Origin: a virus
DNA length: 64,000 bases
Virus record (IMG/VR): IMGVR_UViG_3300031753_000004
Coordinates: 1 to 64,000 of that record
Strand: one strand, 5' to 3'
A program made the translations under genes and the position numbers. How positions within the stretch are numbered: the first letter of the stretch is position 1; each line of letters begins with the position of its first letter. Below, piece by piece: positions 28,245-45,430 of the stretch. The notes beneath the pieces are model-generated. The model did not search any database. It was not told the origin of the DNA and saw only the letters and a program-made list of their open reading frames with translations.

Positions 28245-28588
28245 GTCTTCACCGTTACTTGGGCCGTGGCTGGGACGTTGCTCAAGGCAGCCGTCTTGTG
28301 TAACGTCCGTGACTTGGTGTAGTTCACGATAGTCCAGGCAGAAGCCGCCACCGCTATGGCTGCCACGACAAGGTTAGTGATGGCACCGTAGAGGGTAGAG
28401 GCGTCGGCCGGCTTCACTATCCCGGTCGAGAGCATGATGCTCATACCCACCTTGAGGAACGTCAGCCAGGTCTCGCTCGGTATGCCAGTCTTGGCACCGA
28501 TCCAGGTCTGCACGTCGGCAGGGGTCTCTACCACGGTTGGCGTCGGATCGGTCGCCACTATCGTCCCTCCAGTTGCCTCTGCACCCAT
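28241..28588 (-). CDS. holin-like two-TM protein
   Basis: GIPSETW...two TM segments...YTKSRTLHK. Confidence 0.5.
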   Translation of the reverse strand: MGAEATGGTIVATDPTPTVVETPADVQTWIGAKTGIPSETWLTFLKVGMSIMLSTGIVKPADASTLYGAITNLVVAAIAVAASAWTIVNYTKSRTLHKTAALSNVPATAQVTVKT

Positions 28589-29190
28589 GCGGGCGGAGGC
28601 CAGCTTACCGGGGGCTTCATGCCTCCAGCCGATGGGCCGGAAGGAGGCGCGCCACCAGCGGCCGGCGGAGTCACCGGCGGATTAGTTCCCGGTCCCGGAG
28701 CCGGAGGGTTAGGATTCACCACCGGAGGCGGAACGACAGGCGGCGTCGGCTTCATAGTCGGTGGCCCGACCAGTATCGTCAGCGGGAACATATCACTCGG
28801 CACGGTCAGGACGGTGCCCGTATCTCCGTGGGTCATGTTGATACCGGCTGGCGGCGGCCACGTGGCGTGCTGCTTACGAGCCTGTTCCAGCCACTTCTTG
28901 CCATCGCAGCACTGGCAGTCCTTACAGGTGCATCCCGGCCCGCATGGACAGTCGGGGCAGCACTGGCCTACCTCCCTGCTCTCCCTCACCGCCGGCACAG
29001 GCTTATCCGGGCTAGTGTCAATTCTCGGCGCATGCGGAACGTAGTACCTCGGCGGTTGCTGCGCCCTGGTGCAACTCACGAGGTACAGGAAGCACGCCAC
29101 GACGAACCCGGCTGTCAAGAAGCTCCACCACGGACTCCACTTGCGGTTCATACTCTTCTCCTGCCCCGTATAGGGGCGGTTAGTGTTCAC
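28558..29190 (-). CDS. membrane-anchored Cys-cluster/Pro-rich protein
   Basis: TM segment, CCPDCPCGPGCTCKDCQCC, Pro-rich tail. Confidence 0.7.
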   Translation of the reverse strand: MNTNRPYTGQEKSMNRKWSPWWSFLTAGFVVACFLYLVSCTRAQQPPRYYVPHAPRIDTSPDKPVPAVRESREVGQCCPDCPCGPGCTCKDCQCCDGKKWLEQARKQHATWPPPAGINMTHGDTGTVLTVPSDMFPLTILVGPPTMKPTPPVVPPPVVNPNPPAPGPGTNPPVTPPAAGGAPPSGPSAGGMKPPVSWPPPAWVQRQLEGR

Positions 29191-30726: not shown

Positions 30727-30914
30727 TAGTCGTCCTGGTTGAAGTACACGACAGAAAACGCACAAAGAACCGAGAACAGAACCATTCCCATGAAGAAAAA
30801 GAACTGCCCCCAAGCCGTGTCAGTTCCGCCGACTTTGCTTTGCCCATAACCCACAAGGCCAAAGACAAGGGCCGCGCTTCCGATCAGGCTGGCGAATGTG
30901 TAAAGCGTATTCAT
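30726..30914 (-). CDS. small two-TM membrane protein
   Basis: 62 aa, hydrophobic, coupled to neighbours. Confidence 0.65.
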   Translation of the reverse strand: MNTLYTFASLIGSAALVFGLVGYGQSKVGGTDTAWGQFFFFMGMVLFSVLCAFSVVYFNQDD

Positions 30915-31888
30915 TAGCCAAATACTTCCTTTACCTGTCTAACAAGTTCATCCCCGTTTGCCTTGGTGGGGATGAGCATTCCACCTTCGCCGATTTCGTT
31001 CCATGCGTAGTTCAGGACGAGCCCGATATTGGGACTGCCGGCAATGAACTTCTTGGCGGCGAGCAACAGTTCTCGGTACTTCTCCGGCGTAACGGCGTCG
31101 AAGTAACCCTCCGGAGGAATGTCGAGCGGGCGCCTGTCAAAACCGGCGCACACGACAGGCACGTACTTCGCCCCGGTCGCAGCAAAGCTGTCCCAATACG
31201 GCGGAATCGTAGTGAGTAGGCTGCCGTAGTCGATAGCCACCGTCTCTGTCGGAAGATGCCCGACGCTGGCGTAATCGCCGCACACGAAATCAAAGCCATC
31301 TGCCAGCGCCTGGGGAACGTCGGCTGGATTGGACAGCGTGCCACCCAGAAGCAAGTCGTTGCCCAGCCCAGCCCGATCTCTGAGCACCTGCAAAAATACC
31401 TTGGCGTTAGCGCCTAACTGAGAATGAAAGTCAGCCGCCGAATCGATAATCAGCACAGGCTTGCCGCCAACACGCAAGTACTGCGGATCGGCAAAGTAGC
31501 TTGCCCAGAGGTCGCAAGTGGTGCTCCAGACGCCTGGGTCTGTAATGATGTAGTTCGGACTACAGACATAGTTGAGGCAGAACTTGAGGCGCGACTTGTT
31601 CGGAGCGGTCAGGAAGAAATTCAGCCCGTTGTTGCTGTTCGCAATGGTGCCGGGGAAGTGTTCGACGCGCGGAGTGGCGTACCAGTCGTACGCGAGGAAG
31701 TCGAGTCCGGCGTCTGCGGCTTGGCCTATCTGCGCGGCCATAATCGCCAGCAGGTCATCGAACCAGCCGACGAGGGGCTCTCGCAATGGAAACTTGAGCC
31801 GCCAGTCTGTGGCACCGTTGAAGTAGTGGGGCGCTCCGAACGCCCGCCACCACCCGCTGAAGTACCAGGCTCCTACCAATGGCCTCAC
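30914..31888 (-). CDS. GH99-like/WbsX-family glycoside hydrolase domain protein
   Basis: GAWYFSGW, REPLVGW, GLDFLAYDWY, YFADPQYLRVGGKPV, GFDRRP, YAWNEIGEGG. Confidence 0.85.
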   Translation of the reverse strand: MRPLVGAWYFSGWWRAFGAPHYFNGATDWRLKFPLREPLVGWFDDLLAIMAAQIGQAADAGLDFLAYDWYATPRVEHFPGTIANSNNGLNFFLTAPNKSRLKFCLNYVCSPNYIITDPGVWSTTCDLWASYFADPQYLRVGGKPVLIIDSAADFHSQLGANAKVFLQVLRDRAGLGNDLLLGGTLSNPADVPQALADGFDFVCGDYASVGHLPTETVAIDYGSLLTTIPPYWDSFAATGAKYVPVVCAGFDRRPLDIPPEGYFDAVTPEKYRELLLAAKKFIAGSPNIGLVLNYAWNEIGEGGMLIPTKANGDELVRQVKEVFG

Positions 31889-32757
31889 TGAAACAACTCC
31901 ATGATGTCGTTTAGGCACTTGGTCTGTGTGCCCTGTGCCTTTTCCGGAAGCACTTGCGGCAGGTTCCTGCCCGGCCCTTGGTCCCAGCTCTCCACTACGA
32001 CATGCTCCGGCATTCCGATGAGATCGCGAATCTGTTTCGCGTTGGCGATAGTTTTGTCGCACCAGTCCTGGCTGTCTGTAGCTGGTCCACCCGGCCACAT
32101 GATGACGCCGCAAGGGATGCTGCGAGCGATGCAATTTGACCGGAGCAAAGGCAGGTCTCGGGCCAGCGCTCCGGCGTAGATCGCGCCGGCCAACTCCGAG
32201 AAGTCGATATCCAGGTGGCAGAAGTCGGGCTTAGCGCCTGCTTGAATGAGTCCGTCAAGCGCCTGCGCGTGCTGAGCCGCCGTCAGCGACGGGTAGGAAA
32301 ATGTTAAGCCTACCTGAGTCGCTGGTCGGAACGCCTTGACTGCCTTAACGTAGTCGGCAGTCCTCCCCACGGTAGCGTTGATGTCCAGACCCGACTGGAG
32401 GCCGTCGAATATCGGGCTGTCCATCGAGACAAAGTCGAGCGTTCCGCCGGTACTTTCGACGTGAGAGATCATGGCCTGCGTATCCATGACAGCTTGCACC
32501 TGGTTGGCCATGTACTGCGGCTTCACGACACCAGCATTTACCGCTAGCTTGATTGACCAATCCTTCAGCTTGGCCACCGCTCCGACCGCCGCCAGAACGG
32601 ACCAGGCATTCTTCGCACCCTGCGCCCAGTTCTCCAGCTCCGGCGTCTCCAGCATGATGATGCTCGTGGCGTTCCTCGAGCGCGGCCACTGCACCGGGTA
32701 GGCAAAGAGGTCTGAGACGTTCGCGTTCAAGTTAGGACAGAGCCAAACGGCCTTCAC
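31885..32757 (-). CDS. putative glycoside hydrolase-like TIM-barrel protein
   Basis: FVSMDSP, DFCHLD, VVVESW; weak pattern. Confidence 0.45.
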   Translation of the reverse strand: MKAVWLCPNLNANVSDLFAYPVQWPRSRNATSIIMLETPELENWAQGAKNAWSVLAAVGAVAKLKDWSIKLAVNAGVVKPQYMANQVQAVMDTQAMISHVESTGGTLDFVSMDSPIFDGLQSGLDINATVGRTADYVKAVKAFRPATQVGLTFSYPSLTAAQHAQALDGLIQAGAKPDFCHLDIDFSELAGAIYAGALARDLPLLRSNCIARSIPCGVIMWPGGPATDSQDWCDKTIANAKQIRDLIGMPEHVVVESWDQGPGRNLPQVLPEKAQGTQTKCLNDIMELFQ

Positions 32758-32875: not shown

Positions 32876-33175
32876 CTACTCACCGACTATAGGTGACTGT
32901 GGCCATCCGAAGTGGCCGGTCAGCAGGCCCAGCAGGAAACCGATGAAGAGGAACATGGCGGCTGGTATCCACGGGAACGCTTTCCATAGCCTCTCCATCC
33001 CTCTGCTAATGCTCGCTTCGTTCCCCCACTTGCGTATCAGCCACCCATCTATCCACCCGATCAGGGCCACGAACAGGAGCAGTGCGGGTATCAGGCATAC
33101 GGCAGCCGCCAGACCTATCGAGGTCGGGGTTATGGCTATCACTTCTCCCACGGCGGATACCTCTCCCCGCCCCAC
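32876..33175 (-). CDS. membrane protein (start uncertain)
   Basis: Two TM segments, GLLTGHFGWPQ. Confidence 0.6.
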   Translation of the reverse strand: MGRGEVSAVGEVIAITPTSIGLAAAVCLIPALLLFVALIGWIDGWLIRKWGNEASISRGMERLWKAFPWIPAAMFLFIGFLLGLLTGHFGWPQSPIVGE

Positions 33176-33459
33176 TGATCTCCATTCCTCTCGTAGTACC
33201 CTCCGAACTTAGGGCAGTTGTCGTACCAGCAGGCATAAAGCGCCCCGTCTCGGTAGAGGTAGTAGCAGTGCTTGGACTGCTTGACCCACTTCAAGGACGG
33301 CTGGTACTGCACCTGTTGGTACTGGTAGCTCTGCATCTGGGGCATGTAGCCCATGCCACCACCGAAGCCGCCCATGCCCATCGAGGACGCACCGCCCCCG
33401 CCGCAAGAGCCGCCGCCTCACCCACTGACCGTCATCGCTAGTAACAGGATCGAGTACAT
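33139..33459 (-). CDS. secreted Gly/Met-rich protein with in-frame TGA at codon 14 (candidate selenoprotein)
   Basis: TAGGAG RBS, MYSILLLAMTVSG-TGA-GGGSCGGGG continuing in frame into ORF 33139..33381. Confidence 0.65.
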
Positions 33460-33492
33460 TGTTGCTGCTCCTAAACAGAGAAACCTAGCGCG

Positions 33493-33717
33493 TCAAAGCA
33501 GGCTGGCAAGGAACTTGATCGCGAAGATGGCCACCACCACGGCCACACAGATCCAGAAGATGCGAATAACCCAAGGCGGAATGGTATAGCCCAGTACACC
33601 GAGGATGATGTACATGATGGCGATAATGCCACAAATGATTATCAGAGCGACGATCCATTGAATGAGACCCCAGGTCGCTATTGGTCCAACCGCCTGCGCT
33701 AGCATGAGAGCCGACAT
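33493..33717 (-). CDS. two-TM membrane protein (holin-like)
   Basis: Two very hydrophobic segments. Confidence 0.7.
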   Translation of the reverse strand: MSALMLAQAVGPIATWGLIQWIVALIIICGIIAIMYIILGVLGYTIPPWVIRIFWICVAVVVAIFAIKFLASLL

Positions 33718-33724
33718 GGTTCAC

Positions 33725-34072
33725 CTACTTCTTGTAGACCTGGAGAGCAATGGTCAGTGCGCTGAAGATTATCATCAGTACCGCCGCATACGCTGCCAAC
33801 CTACTCTTGACCTCCGCTACCGATGTGGCCAGTGCCACATGAGACTTCAGCAGCTCCTCGTACCTCTTGTCCGCGATCCCGGCCACCCTATCCGTCTCTC
33901 TCCTTTGCAGCTCCAGTGCCTTGTCGTTGCTGTCCAGCCTCAGTTCAATACGTTCCCGAATAGCCTCATCTCGGTGCTCCAAGTACTCCCTTACCGATAC
34001 CAGCGAATCGTTCTGGCTTTGGCGAATCCTTCCTGGCTTCCTGTTGACCATACCTATCGTGCTGCACTGCAC
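33725..34072 (-). CDS. coiled-coil protein with C-terminal TM
   Basis: VSVREYLE...C-terminal hydrophobic anchor. Confidence 0.65.
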   Translation of the reverse strand: MQCSTIGMVNRKPGRIRQSQNDSLVSVREYLEHRDEAIRERIELRLDSNDKALELQRRETDRVAGIADKRYEELLKSHVALATSVAEVKSRLAAYAAVLMIIFSALTIALQVYKK

Positions 34073-34081
34073 AAATCTTGG

Positions 34082-34483
34082 CTAAGCCTTCCGGTAAAAC
34101 GCTGCCCACGCAACTAGGGTTCCCACTATCAAGGTGCCCACGGCAATCATCAACCCCACCAACCACTGCTGACCTGCTGTCCTTGCCTCCATACTCGCCA
34201 CCCTCGACTCCAACTTCTGCGCCGTGCCGAAAGCCAAGTCAACCTTTTCCGTGAGTGACTTCTGCTGCTCCCTCCAGGTGTCTTGGCTGACGTACTTCTC
34301 GAAATTCTGCTGTGCCCGCGCGTGCTCGTGATTTAGCTCGTTCAGTCGCCTCTCGTACTCCGAAGCCTGAAGGCGCTTCGCGTTTTCAGAGGACTCGAGC
34401 GCCTCCCGGAGAATCTTGACATCGGCCTCCAGGTCCTTGAACTCACGTAGACCTACGTGGTCTCTGGCGCTGTCGTTGGGCAC
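34082..34483 (-). CDS. coiled-coil protein with C-terminal TM
   Basis: VGLREF...EYERRLNELNHEH...C-terminal anchor. Confidence 0.7.
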   Translation of the reverse strand: MPNDSARDHVGLREFKDLEADVKILREALESSENAKRLQASEYERRLNELNHEHARAQQNFEKYVSQDTWREQQKSLTEKVDLAFGTAQKLESRVASMEARTAGQQWLVGLMIAVGTLIVGTLVAWAAFYRKA

Positions 34484-34516: not shown

Positions 34517-34588
34517 TGGCTCGGCTGGGATTTGCACCCAGGTTCTCCAGGTTATGGGCCTGGCGAGATACTGCTTCTCCACCGAGCT
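34517..34588 (-). tRNA. tRNA-Met(CAT), initiator (fMet)-like, no encoded CCA
   Basis: AGCTCGG TG GAGA-AGCAGTA-TCTC G CCAGG-CCCATAA-CCTGG AGAAC CTGGG-TGCAAAT-CCCAG CCGAGCC A: full cloverleaf, 1:72 mismatch, A11:U24. Confidence 0.88.
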
Positions 34589-40375: not shown

Positions 40376-40667
40376 CCGGCACTTGCGAGTAGTGCAAGTC
40401 GTCATGATGGAAAAGCGGCTGACGTTTAGCAGCCCTCTCCTCCAGTACACGGATCTTTGCTTCGGTCCCAGGGATAGCTCTCACCGGCCACGTAGGGACC
40501 GTGCTCATCTCCCCGCCGTAGTCGTTGCATCGTTCGCCTTTGCATGACTTGGCGACTCGTGGATACAGCACGCGAATCTCAACGCGCCGGTAGCAGCGCC
40601 AGCACAGGCCGCGTGACTCGGTTCCGGGTAGTCTCCGGCAGTGGCGGCAGTAGGGGATGGTGTTCAT
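40356..40667 (-). CDS. small Zn-binding hypothetical protein
   Basis: CRHC...RGLCWRCY...PGTEAKIRVLEERA...LFHHDD. Confidence 0.7.
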   Translation of the reverse strand: MNTIPYCRHCRRLPGTESRGLCWRCYRRVEIRVLYPRVAKSCKGERCNDYGGEMSTVPTWPVRAIPGTEAKIRVLEERAAKRQPLFHHDDLHYSQVPDEEPTD

Positions 40668-43600
40668 AGGATTCCCTCCGGCGCATCGCTGGCCTCGAAG
40701 TCATCTAGACTCTTGGCTCCAGACTTCTCGGCAGCTTCCTCAATGTCTTCCTTGGTTCGCTTTTGATCTGAGTCGTCTTCGCCCACGTTGGCCGGCAAAA
40801 ATGCGCATCTACAGTTCACGTGCGCCGGGATCATTCCGTGAGCATCATCGATGCTTAGCACAACCCCTTCCATCGGCGAACATTCTTCGCAATTATGGAC
40901 AAGCACACCATTAGCGTAAAACTCCTCTTCATCTTCCACCTGGATGTTGTAGACTGGAAGTGGAATACCAAGCAGTGAATGACCTATTACATCGCTTTCA
41001 GTCAAGAGAGCATAACAATGCCGTTTGAGTTCACGTGCCCCACTTGCAGCACAAGTTTTTATCGACGCACTAAGGGACTCTATCGTGGAGTGAAGAAGCG
41101 CTATTGCTCGTTCGCGTGTTCCCTCAAAGGCAGGAGGGAGGGTGGCTTTAAGTTCGTCTGCGACCAGTGCGGCAAGACATTCAAGAGTCATACTGCGACT
41201 CAAAAGGCCTCCTGCTCTCGCCGGTTCTGTTCCCATCGGTGCTATTCGCTGGCCCGCCGCAATGGTGCCGAACATCCTTGCCCGATTTGTGGGAAGAAGA
41301 TCCATCGGTGGGCTAGTTCTATCGTCAAAGGCGATCGGCGCTTCTGCTCCAGATCTTGTTACGAGTCCTCTAGGCAAAACGAGGTCGCTAAGGTCTGCCT
41401 CGGCTGCGGTAAGTCCTTCACTGTCAATGGCTCTACTTCCGACCGATACGCATATTGTTCGGTCAAGTGCCGGGTCAAAACCAAGGGAGGCGAATACAGA
41501 CGGTGCCGGTCCTGCGGAAAGCGAATCCTTTTGGGCGGCTGTGATAAACGCCGTGGCAATATGAGGAAACATTGCTCCGAAGAGTGTCGCCGTCCTCCAG
41601 TTATCCAGAAGTGCGTCACCTGCGGCACTGAATTTAGGAGAGTTCCATCCAACACCAAGAGGCGCTTTTGCTCGTTCGCTTGCTACCGTCGCTCGCGCCA
41701 TGAAACCTCTCTTGAGCGAATGGTACGGCTCGCACTTGACAGGCTCGGCATCGCTTACATCCAAGAGGCACGAGTCGGCCGGTTCTCTGTGGACTTCTTG
41801 CTCCCACACACGATGGTCGCTATTGAGGCCGACGGCACCTACTGGCATCGAAACACCGAGAGGGACGCCAGGAAGAATACGTGCCTCTCCCGCTTGGGAT
41901 GGCGCGTCTACCGAATCACCGAAGCGGAAGTTAATAATGCCAAGGATGTCGGCAAGCTCATTTCCGACCGTCTGCAATGTCTGTTCTAACCGAAGTTTCC
42001 CGGCCGCTGTCCATCCTTGTTCCGAAGTCCAGAACGGGTGATTGGCGGTCGATGTGTTCCTGCCGACCGCTGTGAGTACGGTCGTCATCGGTCCTTCGTA
42101 GTCTCTCACGAACGTCTTGAGAACCGCACGCCAGCCGCCTCTTGTCCTCACTTTCATGCCGACCAGTATGTCTTGGATCGGCACTTCGCCTTCCTCCGTC
42201 TCGACCAGAGTCCACGCTGGAAAACACACATGGTCGTCCCCTGCCGTGCTCCACTCGACCGCTACGCCGACCTCTTGCACTCCCAGGTCTTCCATTGCGT
42301 CAAGCTGCCCTTCGGCGTGGGCTCGGATAATCTCCGTGCGTGCAACCGCTTCCGCCCTCACCTCCGAAAATCCAACCTCGTCCTCCAGGTCGCCAGCAAT
42401 CTCCAAGGGATGCTTTCCTTGCACTAATCCATCTGTGAGGGCTCTGCTGCACTTATTCGACATATCCTCCGTCACGTTCTTCAGCTCATCGAACGTGCGG
42501 TCAGCCAGAAGCCGCACTTTCTCAATCGACTCCGGCTGCGCGAAAGACGACCGCAGGAACTCTTCGCGCGTGCCCCGGTAGAAGTCGCTCACCGACTGTT
42601 GCGCCTCAGCCGTGAATAGCTCGGGATGCTCCTTGCCCAGCTTGGACATTCGCACATCGTCAAACGCTCTGCCGGCGCCTTTGGCGAAGCCTTCTTGGAT
42701 GTATCGCTTCCAGCGCTCCTCTTCGGTTTCGTTGCTGATGAGGGAGAACGTCTGCCGCTTGAGCCACGCCTGGAATGCCTTCACCTTGTCGGTGGGATCG
42801 TGGAACATCCAGCGGGTGTTGACTACCAGCGAGTATGTTCCTTCGACGTGGCGGAAGGGAACCTCAACGGTTCTGAACTCTCTGGCGTTGGTAGTCAACA
42901 TCGGCTTCGGATGCTTCTCGTACAAGTCGTGCGCCAGGTCAATAGCCTGCATCACCCCGCCCGTCTCGTCCAATGCCGCCGACAAGAGAGCGTAGTACCA
43001 ATCGTTGAACCCGTGCGCCTCGAGCGCCATAGCCACGGTCGCAGCGTTCTCTTGCTCCGAGTTGTGGATGAGGTATCGCTTGACACCACCGCTCACCTTG
43101 CCGGCCGCCTCTTTGACGAGCCCGGTAGCAGCACGGATTGTGGCCAGCGGATCGCGGGCCGTCGAATACGCCAGATATCCCACCGAGGCCACAGGCAGAG
43201 TCCCGGTCACTAGCGCGGGCAGATGGGCCGCATGGACGCCTGCTATGGCGCTGAACTTAAACGCCTCGAATGTGCCGAGGTCGATCTTGCTGAGCACCCC
43301 TCGGAGTTGCTTGGCCTGCTCTGGAGTATGGCCACGCTCTCGCGCTGTCCTCTCGGCGAGCGCCTGCGTGGACGTGAAGACTGCGAACGCGGCAGAGATC
43401 CCCATCTTGCCGGCGTAGGCTAGCGGGCCGTAGGTGGCATTCACCGCGTGGGGTAAGTGATCTGGCAGGCTTGATACCGCTTTACCAATGCCGTCTGCTG
43501 CGTAGGACTTGGCAAGGTGCTCGATATGGGCAGCGCCGGTGCCTACTGCCTTCAGGCCGGTAAGCATGCCGGAGAAGGAGATCCTACCTTCGCCTTCAAG

Positions 43601-44545
43601 AGAACCGAACTCGCCGCCTTCGCCCCATCTGCCGTGTTCGTCGCGGGGCTGGTCTGGGCTCCAATTCCGAATGACTTGATCCCTGATTGGCATTCCTGTT
43701 CCGCTGCCACCTATCCAATGCTTGAAGGCCGACATGGTGACGGCCTTCATCCCGTCGAACCCGGTCCAGCCCTCCGAGTAGTTATCGTGATAGGCTTTCT
43801 TGGCGTCCTTCGCATTCGTGAAGCCGACCATGCACTTGTGCTCGTCGAACGTACCGTCCTGCCGCTTCTGGTCGATGATGAACACGACCTCGCTCTCTGG
43901 GTGCGGACCTAGAAACACGTCCACATGGTCACCGTCCGCCTCGCTCTCAGTCCTCTTGATGTAGCCGTAGTGGTGGGCCATTCGCTGGACGTAGCTCTTG
44001 CCCCGGCGAAGGTTGCCGGCCGCTACCTCTATGGTGATCGGAAGCCCCTGGACCGTGACATGGCCCTTGCGGTAGTTGCCCGCCTCTTTCTGCTCGGGTG
44101 ATGGGTCGGGGTCGGCCTCACTTGCTGCCGCCTCAATCGCCGCTCGTAGATCGCGGTTTACCGTAAACGGCTCTCGCTCCTTCAGCCCGAAGGCGTCCTC
44201 GTCCACCAAAAGCTTGACGATCCTACCCTTGAGGAGCGCAAACTGCCGCTTGATCTTGGCACAGAACGCCCGGCGCATCGTCACAGTTTTTGTCGGATCA
44301 AGGCGCGATGCCTTGACGCTCGGCTTCTTCTTGGCCTTTTTGTTGGCGCGGAGTTTCAGCTTGTTTGTGGCGATGCGGTTCGGTTTGCGCTTGGGGAGCT
44401 TCTTGCCCTTTGGAGTGTGCTCCTCCCAGCGCTTGGCCATAGCGGGATCGTTGGCGTGCATCCATGCGCGCTGTTTTTCAGATACAAACGGGTTCACCGT
44501 CAGGGCGTTGGCCGTCGGTCGGCGCTTCTTGGGTCGGACTTTCAT
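40664..44545 (-). CDS. MuF/SPP1 gp7-family minor head protein, modular, with InPase domain and an intein
   Basis: DPTKT..MRR, YIQEGFAKG, RAEAVARTEIIRAHAEGQL, WSTAGDDHV|C..C, IPAHVNCRCAF; start at MKVRPKK. Confidence 0.9.
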   Translation of the reverse strand: MKVRPKKRRPTANALTVNPFVSEKQRAWMHANDPAMAKRWEEHTPKGKKLPKRKPNRIATNKLKLRANKKAKKKPSVKASRLDPTKTVTMRRAFCAKIKRQFALLKGRIVKLLVDEDAFGLKEREPFTVNRDLRAAIEAAASEADPDPSPEQKEAGNYRKGHVTVQGLPITIEVAAGNLRRGKSYVQRMAHHYGYIKRTESEADGDHVDVFLGPHPESEVVFIIDQKRQDGTFDEHKCMVGFTNAKDAKKAYHDNYSEGWTGFDGMKAVTMSAFKHWIGGSGTGMPIRDQVIRNWSPDQPRDEHGRWGEGGEFGSLEGEGRISFSGMLTGLKAVGTGAAHIEHLAKSYAADGIGKAVSSLPDHLPHAVNATYGPLAYAGKMGISAAFAVFTSTQALAERTARERGHTPEQAKQLRGVLSKIDLGTFEAFKFSAIAGVHAAHLPALVTGTLPVASVGYLAYSTARDPLATIRAATGLVKEAAGKVSGGVKRYLIHNSEQENAATVAMALEAHGFNDWYYALLSAALDETGGVMQAIDLAHDLYEKHPKPMLTTNAREFRTVEVPFRHVEGTYSLVVNTRWMFHDPTDKVKAFQAWLKRQTFSLISNETEEERWKRYIQEGFAKGAGRAFDDVRMSKLGKEHPELFTAEAQQSVSDFYRGTREEFLRSSFAQPESIEKVRLLADRTFDELKNVTEDMSNKCSRALTDGLVQGKHPLEIAGDLEDEVGFSEVRAEAVARTEIIRAHAEGQLDAMEDLGVQEVGVAVEWSTAGDDHVCFPAWTLVETEEGEVPIQDILVGMKVRTRGGWRAVLKTFVRDYEGPMTTVLTAVGRNTSTANHPFWTSEQGWTAAGKLRLEQTLQTVGNELADILGIINFRFGDSVDAPSQAGEARILPGVPLGVSMPVGAVGLNSDHRVWEQEVHREPADSCLLDVSDAEPVKCEPYHSLKRGFMARATVASERAKAPLGVGWNSPKFSAAGDALLDNWRTATLFGAMFPHIATAFITAAQKDSLSAGPAPSVFASLGFDPALDRTICVSVGSRAIDSEGLTAAEADLSDLVLPRGLVTRSGAEAPIAFDDRTSPPMDLLPTNRARMFGTIAAGQRIAPMGTEPARAGGLLSRSMTLECLAALVADELKATLPPAFEGTRERAIALLHSTIESLSASIKTCAASGARELKRHCYALLTESDVIGHSLLGIPLPVYNIQVEDEEEFYANGVLVHNCEECSPMEGVVLSIDDAHGMIPAHVNCRCAFLPANVGEDDSDQKRTKEDIEEAAEKSGAKSLDDFEASDAPEGIL
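40892..42226 (-). mobile_element. intein (445 aa) in the MuF V-C-x-x-C motif
   Basis: Block A CFPAWTLV, block B TSTANHPFW, block F PVYNIQVE, block G YANGVLVHN followed by extein Cys. Confidence 0.93.
41018..41989 (+). CDS. zinc-finger-repeat DUF559/Vsr-like endonuclease nested antisense within the intein
   Basis: Six CxxC...(F/Y/H)CSxxC units, then ETSLE...QEARVGRFSVDFLL...IEADGTYWH...RD.RKN..L...GWRVYRITE; AAGAGAG before ATG. Confidence 0.9.
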   Translation: MPFEFTCPTCSTSFYRRTKGLYRGVKKRYCSFACSLKGRREGGFKFVCDQCGKTFKSHTATQKASCSRRFCSHRCYSLARRNGAEHPCPICGKKIHRWASSIVKGDRRFCSRSCYESSRQNEVAKVCLGCGKSFTVNGSTSDRYAYCSVKCRVKTKGGEYRRCRSCGKRILLGGCDKRRGNMRKHCSEECRRPPVIQKCVTCGTEFRRVPSNTKRRFCSFACYRRSRHETSLERMVRLALDRLGIAYIQEARVGRFSVDFLLPHTMVAIEADGTYWHRNTERDARKNTCLSRLGWRVYRITEAEVNNAKDVGKLISDRLQCLF

Positions 44546-44669
44546 TTCTTGTCCTTGAGCAGGTCCCGTATCTGCCGCAGATAGGCGGAGATGTTGCACA
44601 GAACCAAGAATGACAACACGGCCAGGGTCGCCTTTGCCCACTCATCAAGCAGGTTTTCGTATGCTCCAA

Positions 44670-45028: not shown

Positions 45029-45430
45029 TTAGTCCTTGTCTTTGACGCGAGCCATTGCCCACGGTGCCGACGTGTCTTGCTCCCAGTGGTCGTCTCTCCG
45101 CCAGTAGAAGCGACTACTCTTGCTGTAGTAAGCGGCCACCACGCCACGGGTAGGGCTGTACTGGTAGTATAGGTCTTCGCCCATGTGCCGCCAGGTGAAA
45201 TCGTTGGTCGGCAAAAGGTAGCGGGGCTGCTCGCCACCATACCCAAAACGAAGCGCTCCAGGTCCAAGCGGAGCCAAGCGAACACCGTTTCTCTGGTCTT
45301 GTTCGGCGTAGGTCCATCCTCCACCCGCGTAGGGAGATTGCGAAGCCTCCGGGCAGCACGGCCTTGGCTGCTGAGCAGGGGAGATGCTAAGACACAGGGT
45401 CGTCAAAACTATCCCAATGGCCGCTCTCAT
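45029..45430 (-). CDS. secreted hypothetical protein
   Basis: GGAGG RBS, signal peptide MRAAIGIVLTTLCLSISPA. Confidence 0.7.
   Translation of the reverse strand: MRAAIGIVLTTLCLSISPAQQPRPCCPEASQSPYAGGGWTYAEQDQRNGVRLAPLGPGALRFGYGGEQPRYLLPTNDFTWRHMGEDLYYQYSPTRGVVAAYYSKSSRFYWRRDDHWEQDTSAPWAMARVKDKD

Follow-up and report, generated by a model that had tools for sequence, protein, structure and literature searches.

A putative phage selenoprotein gene with an in-frame UGA, a U-x4-C motif and a SECIS-like hairpin shared by three lineages

The stretch analyzed here (the window, 64,000 nt) comprises positions 1 to 64,000 of the IMG/VR virus record IMGVR_UViG_3300031753_000004, and is the first 64 kb of a complete phage genome of 72,096 bp with direct terminal repeats. 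On the minus strand, which holds nearly all genes of this phage, positions 33459-33139 (-) would form one reading frame of 106 codons, with the UGA at codon 14 decoded as selenocysteine (Sec, U) by the SelB and tRNA-Sec of the host. Host SelB-dependent Sec insertion at this UGA, giving an exported protein with a U-x4-C motif, is our preferred explanation, and we assign it a probability of about 0.65. A selenoprotein would be very unusual for a phage. The original prediction of a secreted phage selenoprotein with U-x4-C is backed by a TGA-x4-TGC arrangement in three lineages and by a covarying hairpin that agrees with the published model of the bacterial selenocysteine insertion sequence (SECIS), while Sec as the inserted residue is what we infer from these sequences.

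All sequence statements of the original prediction about the leader, the ribosome-binding site, the TGA at 33420-33418 and the 92-codon continuation were confirmed. A Shine-Dalgarno-like AGGAG (33472-33468, -) precedes the leader ATG (33459-33457) with an 8-nt spacer. The leader has 13 codons, MYSILLLAMTVSG (33421-33459, -), and is short, uncharged, hydrophobic, and signal-peptide-like, with a lipobox-like V-S-G at its end. It is followed by the in-frame TGA (33418-33420, -), the proposed Sec codon for residue 14, which is found at the same position in the related contigs L002/L003/L008 and L025/L026. Beyond this TGA the frame stays open for 92 codons, GGGSCGGGGASSMGMGG..., until the terminal TGA stop at 33139-33141 (-), which shares GTGA with the GTG start of the next gene. 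The TGC of Cys19 (33403-33405, -), the partner in U-x4-C, occupies nt 16-18 counted from the U of UGA in 3/3 lineages. Residues 15-54 (33298-33417, -) form a low-complexity linker rich in Gly, Met, Gln, and Tyr, and similar GGF/GGY linkers occur in all relatives. A small conserved C-terminal domain (W-x-K...YYLY...ACWYD...PPW; 33142-33297, -) completes the protein, with homologs P0003, P0004, P0006, P0009, and P0010 and matches to a hidden Markov model (HMM). The list of open reading frames (ORFs) and the public protein collection hold only the 80-aa part from Met27 (33139-33381, P0002), as had been stated for the ORF track. The codon-usage coding score of the 92 codons after the TGA was 0.27-0.29, compared with an in-frame mean of 0.24 and an off-frame mean of −0.16.

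Relatives were found by several routes. Queried with the read-through protein, a word-based search across 5.8 billion proteins returned the window's own ORF P0002 and one homolog, P0003 (49% identity), and a full HMMER scan of 1.84 billion representatives gave five matches at E ≤ 0.001 (P0002, P0003, P0004, P0006, and P0005). P0005 (2,655 aa), with a match confined to its Gly-rich part, was left out of the family. The true database homologs are 73-85 aa long and start just past the point of the window's TGA. The IMG/VR contig L002 is the DNA of the P0004 lineage, and L003 is a metagenome contig of different length that is identical in the candidate-gene stretch. The third lineage (L025/L026) was reached solely through a scan with the major capsid protein, which gave 112 related stretches; the best 80 were kept as loci, and the gene was sought in them with a profile of the small domain and a regular expression. 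It is present in three of these best 80 of 112 loci, namely L008 (the L002 contig), L025, and L026. Regular-expression matches in L022 and L087 were judged by eye to be noise. INPHARED phages gave neither a DNA nor a protein match to the candidate gene, two scans of the genome collection gave no relative, and the metagenome scan matched nothing but another contig of the L002 phage. When IMG/VR was scanned with the protein, with two alignments, with the membrane protein next to it, or with a degenerate DNA pattern, either no relative or the L002 contig alone came back, and a scan with the L025 protein returned nothing beyond its own two contigs.

The same architecture is seen in all three lineages. 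In L002, an ATGA overlap with the upstream stop opens 12 leader codons ending in T-V-S-G, followed by TGA and G-S-G-G-C; a Met/Pro/Gln-rich linker and the shared domain come next. In L025, the ATG again overlaps the upstream TGA (ATGA), and 19 hydrophobic leader codons ending in P-A-Q are followed by TGA, H-G-G-G-C, a long GGF/GGY linker, and the shared domain. TGA-x4-TGC behind a hydrophobic leader is therefore read as U-GGGS-C in the window, U-GSGG-C in L002, and U-HGGG-C in L025. The capsid proteins of the L002 and L025 lineages are 87% and 51% identical, respectively, to that of the window, whereas the candidate gene itself shows identities of only 41% and 34%. Every lineage is represented on two contigs (L002/L003, L025/L026, and two contigs for the window cluster), and L025 and L026 show 0 mismatches over 389 nt. 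A sequencing error is unlikely because the same architecture occurs in two further lineages, each on two contigs. A sequencing error or an inactivating nonsense mutation that turned TGC or TGT into TGA in a lipoprotein gene would need only one base, at what is the lipobox Cys site in two lineages. Nevertheless, we regard it as hardly credible: TGA stands at the same position in three lineages with products only 34-41% identical, each on two contigs, and leader and domain are still under selection. The reading as a pseudogene was rejected, and so was a +1 frameshift, as the +1 frame is not coding-like.

The leader is under protein-level selection, because the 12 codons aligned between the window and L002 comprise 3 identical codons and 5 synonymous changes against 4 replacements. 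Leader start signals are the coupled ATGA in L002 and L025 and the AGGAG at 8 nt in the window. The first in-frame ATG, GTG, or TTG past the TGA in L025 is codon 57, and the 56 intervening codons are open and encode a GGF/GGY-type linker; therefore the Gly-rich linker is reachable only from the leader. The small domain occurs three more times behind ordinary signal peptides with charged residues, at 45029-45430 (-) in the window and at 5237-5677 and 5784-6662 in L002. The window paralog has no in-frame TGA, lies just downstream of the portal gene, and was detected by hmmsearch with an E value of 4e-05; in L002 5784-6662 the domain is the N-terminus of a trypsin-like peptidase. Because the three paralogs have ordinary signal peptides, the domain probably acts outside the cytoplasm, and therefore the candidate would reach that compartment only with its leader. 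Judged from these sequences, the start-codon gap in L025 together with the signal peptides of the paralogs means that the TGA must be read through, and that the gene product can be made only if the UGA is passed.

Downstream of the UGA, a hairpin was found in each lineage (positions counted with the U of UGA as 1). In the window, a stem of 8 bp (nt 21-28 with 32-39; 33382-33400, -) closes a GUG loop at 33392-33390, 25 nt from the UGA, with an energy of −10.3 kcal/mol. L002 has a 7-bp stem (nt 21-27 with 33-39), an AGUUC loop 24 nt from the UGA, and −10.7 kcal/mol; L025 has a 7-bp stem (nt 18-24 with 31-37), an AGUUUC loop 21 nt from the UGA, and −15.1 kcal/mol. A published bacterial SECIS model describes a loop of 3-9 nt, a stem of 4-16 bp, a G within the first two nucleotides of the loop, with G or U as the usual next base, a UGA-loop distance of 16-37 nt, and an energy of ≤ −7.5 kcal/mol (PMC13188914). 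In a second description the stem has 6-8 bp, and a conserved G of the loop is placed some 20 nt from the UGA (PMC4605307). The hairpins of 3/3 lineages agree with all constraints of the published model. The bSECISearch-type scan that had been proposed thus returned a hairpin of this kind, with GU in the loop, in all three lineages. The hairpin of the original prediction was a different one (nt 11-17 with 21-27). It does exist, in the minimum-energy fold of 50 nt, but L002 and L025 have not retained it; with its loop 14 nt from the UGA it falls short of the 16-37 nt of the model, and it excludes the conserved hairpin at nt 21-39.

Hairpins that agree with the model follow 65 of the 2,028 TGA triplets of the window genome, and 14 of 2,028 at ≤ −10 kcal/mol. 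When GU in the loop was demanded as well, the 80 related loci had 327 qualifying sites among 40,678 TGA triplets, 110 of them at ≤ −10.3 and 24 at ≤ −15.1 kcal/mol (genes of the family included). Among 3,000 local dinucleotide shuffles of 72 nt, also with GU required, 32 did as well as the window hairpin, 7 as well as that of L002, and 9 as well as that of L025.

Changes between the lineages preserve the stem. The window and L002 hairpins differ at 6/19 positions, and none of the four differences in the shared stem disrupts a pair (G-U to U-A, G-C to G-U, and G-U to G-C). Among the 7 pairs, one is changed on both sides and two on one side, with 0 broken, while four random stem substitutions left all 7 pairs intact in 1.2-2.4% of trials. 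In L025 the polarity of the stem is reversed, and its 5' arm is C-rich. With the window and L002 as its only training sequences, a covariance model gave L025 as its best non-training match, starting exactly at the TGA and with seven standard pairs. In an alignment of the three lineages fitted to the structure, 21/21 cells pair and 4/7 pairs are changed on both sides; 0/500 shuffles reached this score, and slid controls paired in ≤67%. The stem thus covaries, and this conservation with change is a stronger argument than the fit of a single hairpin. At the peptide level the hairpin stretch shows no conservation (G-G-G-A-S-S, S-V-G-S-S-P-M, and C-A-P-S-F-G-G), and the 13 codons past the TGA show 0 synonymous changes between the window and L002. 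These two results therefore point to selection at the RNA level.

Inspection of 12 of the 23 covariance-model matches showed, besides the family, Gly-rich coding stretches, two matches starting at a TGA, and a C-x4-C tail in L023. The two TGA-starting matches, L014 5482 and L021 11432, have no leader and no long open coding frame, and were discarded. The L023 protein (5191-6687, +) is a secreted protein of 498 aa with Pro/Gln/Tyr-, Cys- and Gly/Trp-rich parts, and its tail G-G-G-C-I-G-G-S-C-S-V-G-G is directly followed by the stop. The covariance model gives the last 41 nt of this protein's gene 23.7 bits and aligns a TGC to the TGA. The tail is a C-x4-C-S-V-G counterpart, in a non-orthologous protein, of U-G-S-G-G-C-S-V-G in L002, and is the only such counterpart.

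The 0 synonymous changes would also suit a true stop at the TGA. By this explanation a conserved hydrophobic mini-ORF of 12-19 residues would be released, and the downstream protein would start alone or by re-initiation (at Met27 in the window), with the hairpin regulating that start. Gene callers indeed put all database homologs (73-85 aa) after the TGA, the hairpin of the window and L002 ends at or over an ATG, and Met codons cluster right behind the hairpin in four lineages. However, the hairpin position is fixed to the UGA and not to a start codon, and the next in-frame start in L025 is 57 codons off in a frame that is open with its GGF/GGY-type linker. Leader, linker, and domain share one frame in 3/3 lineages, and TGC lies exactly five codons past the TGA in all of them. 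A form lacking the leader would end up in the wrong compartment, given the signal peptides on 3/3 paralogs of the domain. We therefore consider a true stop unlikely.

Several observations weigh against Sec insertion. Without the demand for GU, 17% and 13% of the local shuffles meet the SECIS model (7.4% and 5.2% at ≤ −10 kcal/mol), and because of these fractions a lone hairpin is weak evidence in a context rich in Gly codons; moreover, the GU demand was added after the loops had been seen. The folding energy of the whole region is ordinary for its composition (z −0.23 and −0.79, within a range of −0.23 to −1.96). The covariance-model match to L025 reaches only 16.5 bits, with an E value of 0.14 for 123 kb; for the full 1.2 Mb of the 80 loci its E value is 1.4 and its rank 10/23, which is not significant. 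The fitting of the three-lineage alignment to the structure also counts here, and MAFFT alone misaligns the L025 hairpin by placing its 3' arm on the 5' arm of the others, so that the covariance model was used instead. No Rfam SECIS family matched positions 33300-33520 at a permissive threshold, and a chance miRNA match was the only one returned; the Rfam SECIS families are protein-specific. As a control we used Escherichia coli fdhF, with its in-frame TGA at codon 140, and its minimum-energy fold shows the known loop GGUC at nt 22-25. Nevertheless, the strict no-bulge scanner misses the fdhF SECIS because its stem is interrupted, which leaves the scan with no successful positive control. The scanner has specificity but little sensitivity, and the fdhF element is less regular than the phage stems.

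The family itself adds to these points. There are only three distinct sequences, two of them from fairly close relatives, and no homolog with Cys in place of the UGA was found in the five lineages covered by the word search of 5.8 billion proteins, a five-sequence profile run on the same proteins, the HMMER scan of 1.84 billion representatives, and the best 80 of 112 capsid loci. The expectation that the UGA replaces a Cys of a C-x4-C pair thus has no orthologous support: where Cys/TGA alternation had been proposed as a check, TGA is kept in 3/3 lineages with DNA, but a Cys form did not appear. Sec/Cys alternation is the usual demand of selenoprotein prediction pipelines, as described in PMC1088965. 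The need for Cys homologs is a criterion of prediction pipelines and not of the mechanism. The leaders are atypical as signal peptides, with 12-13 residues in two lineages and no positive charge, and U-x4-C corresponds to no selenoprotein redox motif known to us. Finally, the explanation presumes that the host holds the Sec machinery (selA/B/C/D).

The necessity of passing the UGA does not identify the inserted residue. The same anatomy would therefore also be explained by SelB-independent leaky read-through, in which a near-cognate tRNA, tRNA-Trp in most bacteria, would read the UGA. A few percent of ribosomes would then make the full protein and the rest would release the 13-residue leader, with the hairpin stimulating or tuning the process. 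Phages do use UGA read-through, as in the A1 protein of phage Q-beta, where a leaky UGA extends a protein; there, the short product is an abundant and functional coat protein and no SECIS-like hairpin is involved, while the short product of the candidate would be a 13-residue peptide. A small-loop hairpin with GU at a fixed 21-25 nt is specifically a SelB-binding arrangement, however, and we are aware of no bacterial read-through stimulator of such form. The conserved Cys in U-x4-C fits a Sec/Cys pair better than Trp, and the base after the UGA varies (G in the window, G in L002, and C in L025). Leaky read-through is thus improbable, slightly more so than a true stop. A ribosomal hop or short bypass, with peptidyl-tRNA-Gly leaving at the stop and re-pairing on the next Gly codon so that no residue is placed at the UGA, has in its favour that GGC-UGA-GGC in L002 and GGG-UGA-GGC in the window resemble stop-hopping sites. 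L025 has CAG-UGA-CAC without a matching landing codon, and known hops of such kind are very inefficient, which makes this explanation very improbable.

Sec insertion at a single gene is consistent with the use of TGA elsewhere in the genome. We counted stops in 110 greedily chosen, non-overlapping ORFs with a minimum length of 60 aa, 85 of them on the minus strand. TGA was the commonest ordinary stop of the window phage, ending 43/85 minus-strand ORFs, and no suppressor tRNA was found; the earlier statement that TGA is an ordinary stop elsewhere, with no global recoding, was thus borne out. The two related phages of the L002 and L025 lineages end 7/17 and 5/19 ORFs with TGA, respectively. The recoded position is TGA in 3/3 lineages, and the product of the ordinary TGA-stop fractions is about 0.05. 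In the genome, 19 TGA triplets carry a hairpin that agrees with the model at ≤ −9.5 kcal/mol, and the one at 33420 alone is followed by 50 or more open codons with a positive coding score, so that there is exactly one recoding candidate. The only tRNA of the window phage, and of the L002 phage, is tRNA-Met (CAT). Genome-wide reassignment of TGA was ruled out by its frequent use as a stop, the single candidate, and the tRNA-Met as only tRNA. The phages showed no tRNA-Sec above threshold, no selB, and no Sec machinery of their own; the best tRNA-Sec-like match (locus L090; G000 69984-70058, +, outside the window) reached 19.3 bits against a gathering score of 47 and was not called by ARAGORN.

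In the window and L002, V-S-G is followed by the UGA at the +1 position of this lipobox-like motif, in L025 P-A-Q precedes the UGA, and Cys stands at +1 in no lineage. A lipobox follows the pattern [LVI][ASTVI][GAS]-C at the end of a hydrophobic leader. Because the L025 leader ends in P-A-Q, the conserved element is U-x4-C and not the lipobox. Lys and Arg are absent from the three leaders and present in the signal peptides of the paralogs. For the window and L002 a seleno-lipoprotein can be imagined, in which Sec takes the place of the invariant lipobox Cys (V-S-G | U-G-G-G-S) and diacylglycerol on selenium forms a selenoether anchor, made only with host selenium and an active Sec pathway; we hold this form to be quite doubtful.

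The product belongs to no family that we could name. Pfam, PHROGs, and NCBIfam gave no family for the protein or its paralogs, and a sequence search of the PDB gave nothing below E 0.28. The ESM Atlas gave no usable feature match, and all its structural matches fell short of the level needed for a name; its model of the 80-aa ORF reaches a predicted local distance difference test score (pLDDT) of 0.52. The small domain carries the motifs W-x-K, [WY]-Y-L-Y, [AG]-C-[YW]-Y-D, and P-P-W, and its sole trace was a choline-binding protein in the PDB (E 0.5). It is reminiscent of cell-wall or choline-binding repeats; no Pfam family, CW_binding_1 included, gave a match even at E up to 10 in 8 members.

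Under SelB-dependent insertion, the hairpin (stem of 7-8 bp, GU in the apical loop, 21-25 nt past the UGA) would act as a SECIS, and SelB would bring Sec-tRNA to the ribosome. The product would be a small protein of 106 residues, and its export, suggested by the leader and the paralogs, would leave U-x4-C at the mature end. U-x4-C is probably a selenylsulfide-forming or thiol-reactive pair, which a flexible Gly-rich tether would join to the small domain. This domain is also found on neighbouring secreted proteins, including the trypsin-like peptidase of a relative. A redox or envelope-directed role may be conjectured, perhaps thiol or selenol chemistry on an envelope protein or a peptidase at the host envelope. 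The nearest isolated phages are Brevundimonas siphoviruses (31% capsid identity). Some Planctomycetes have full sets of Sec genes (PMC4807772).

The in-ORF SECIS of the E. coli fdhF type is alike in having an in-frame UGA followed by a coding-region stem-loop with G[G/U] in a small apical loop. GGUC of fdhF occupies nt 22-25, while the GU is found at nt 29-30 in both the window and L002 and at nt 26-27 in L025, all within 16-37 nt. In contrast to the fdhF type, the candidate belongs to a phage that does not encode Sec machinery, its UGA comes at codon 14 directly behind the leader, its stem has no interruption, homologs in a Cys form are not known, and its product is no recognisable oxidoreductase. 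The Sargasso Sea procedure, as given in PMC1088965, first requires at least 2 Cys homologs aligned with the TGA, and the candidate family has none. Among viral systems, phages with reassigned stop codons in late genes exist; an in-frame stop in a late-region gene is common to both, whereas here a single gene is concerned, TGA is the commonest stop, and there is no suppressor tRNA. Phage lipoproteins include outer-membrane spanins and Llp/Cor-type exclusion proteins. The candidate shares with them a short hydrophobic leader ending in V-S-G, a Cys-like residue, a Gly/Ser tether, and a place among small membrane proteins, but its +1 residue is encoded by UGA and not Cys, P-A-Q of L025 is not a lipobox, and no sequence similarity was seen.

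The glutathione peroxidase of molluscum contagiosum virus is a selenoprotein of a eukaryotic virus, a captured host enzyme with its SECIS in the 3' untranslated region. Like such selenoproteins, the candidate would rely on the host Sec machinery for its own UGA; unlike them, it has a bacterial-type element within the ORF and belongs to no known protein family. Selenoproteins of viruses are mentioned in general terms in PMC8310308. A full-text literature search listed no paper that deals with selenoproteins encoded by phages or with Sec in a lipobox, and the words phage, virus, and lipoprotein are absent from a review of prokaryotic selenoproteomes published in 2026. As a mechanism this would be what is already known from bacteria, and what would be new is the setting: a phage gene, a UGA at codon 14 behind a leader, no known fold, and no Cys form.

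The candidate is a late-region gene, situated after the major capsid gene amid small membrane proteins. The major capsid protein of the window phage is 31% identical to annotated major capsid proteins. The downstream neighbour (32876-33142, -) is a membrane protein of 88 aa, and in L002 its homolog is upstream of the candidate gene. The upstream neighbour (33493-33717, -) is a hydrophobic protein of 74 aa with its own TGA stop at 33495-33493. Next come two coiled-coil proteins (33725-34072 and 34082-34483, -), each with one C-terminal membrane segment and no assigned family; the first has 73% identity in L002. The tRNA-Met (CAT) stands at the head of the same module, at 34517-34588 (-) in the window and at 2129-2202 in L002.

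In all three phages, a secreted trypsin-like peptidase and secreted proteins rich in Pro are encoded beside the candidate gene or within a few genes of it. Pro-rich secreted proteins common to the three phages lie at 28558-29190 (-) in the window, 6476-7438 in L002, and 17234-17899 in L025, and that of the window opens with an L-V-S-C lipobox-like signal with a normal Cys codon. At 30914-31897 (-) the window encodes a GH99/WbsX-like glycoside hydrolase with a confident Atlas model (predicted template modelling score 0.91), and the nearest Atlas clusters are spread over Bacteroidota, Lentisphaerota, and Verrucomicrobiota. A protein of 1,325 aa (40664-44641, -) combines an inorganic-pyrophosphatase-like domain (E 9e-47) with a Mu F-like head morphogenesis domain, and also gave a weak intein-splicing match under the Pfam cut-off.

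Standard gene calling loses recoded phage genes, as this case shows: five database entries of the family are annotated as shortened proteins of 73-85 aa, and the L025 form is apparently unannotated. If the proposed decoding is true, the gene would represent a bacteriophage-encoded selenoprotein family, and phages would be able to hijack the SelB/SECIS recoding of their hosts. The expression of a late, envelope-directed phage protein would then be tied to the selenium status of the host. Such phages would need Sec-decoding hosts, which would make the gene a genomic marker for host prediction. Selenocysteine chemistry would also gain a new setting, with U-x4-C opening an exported protein of no known fold.

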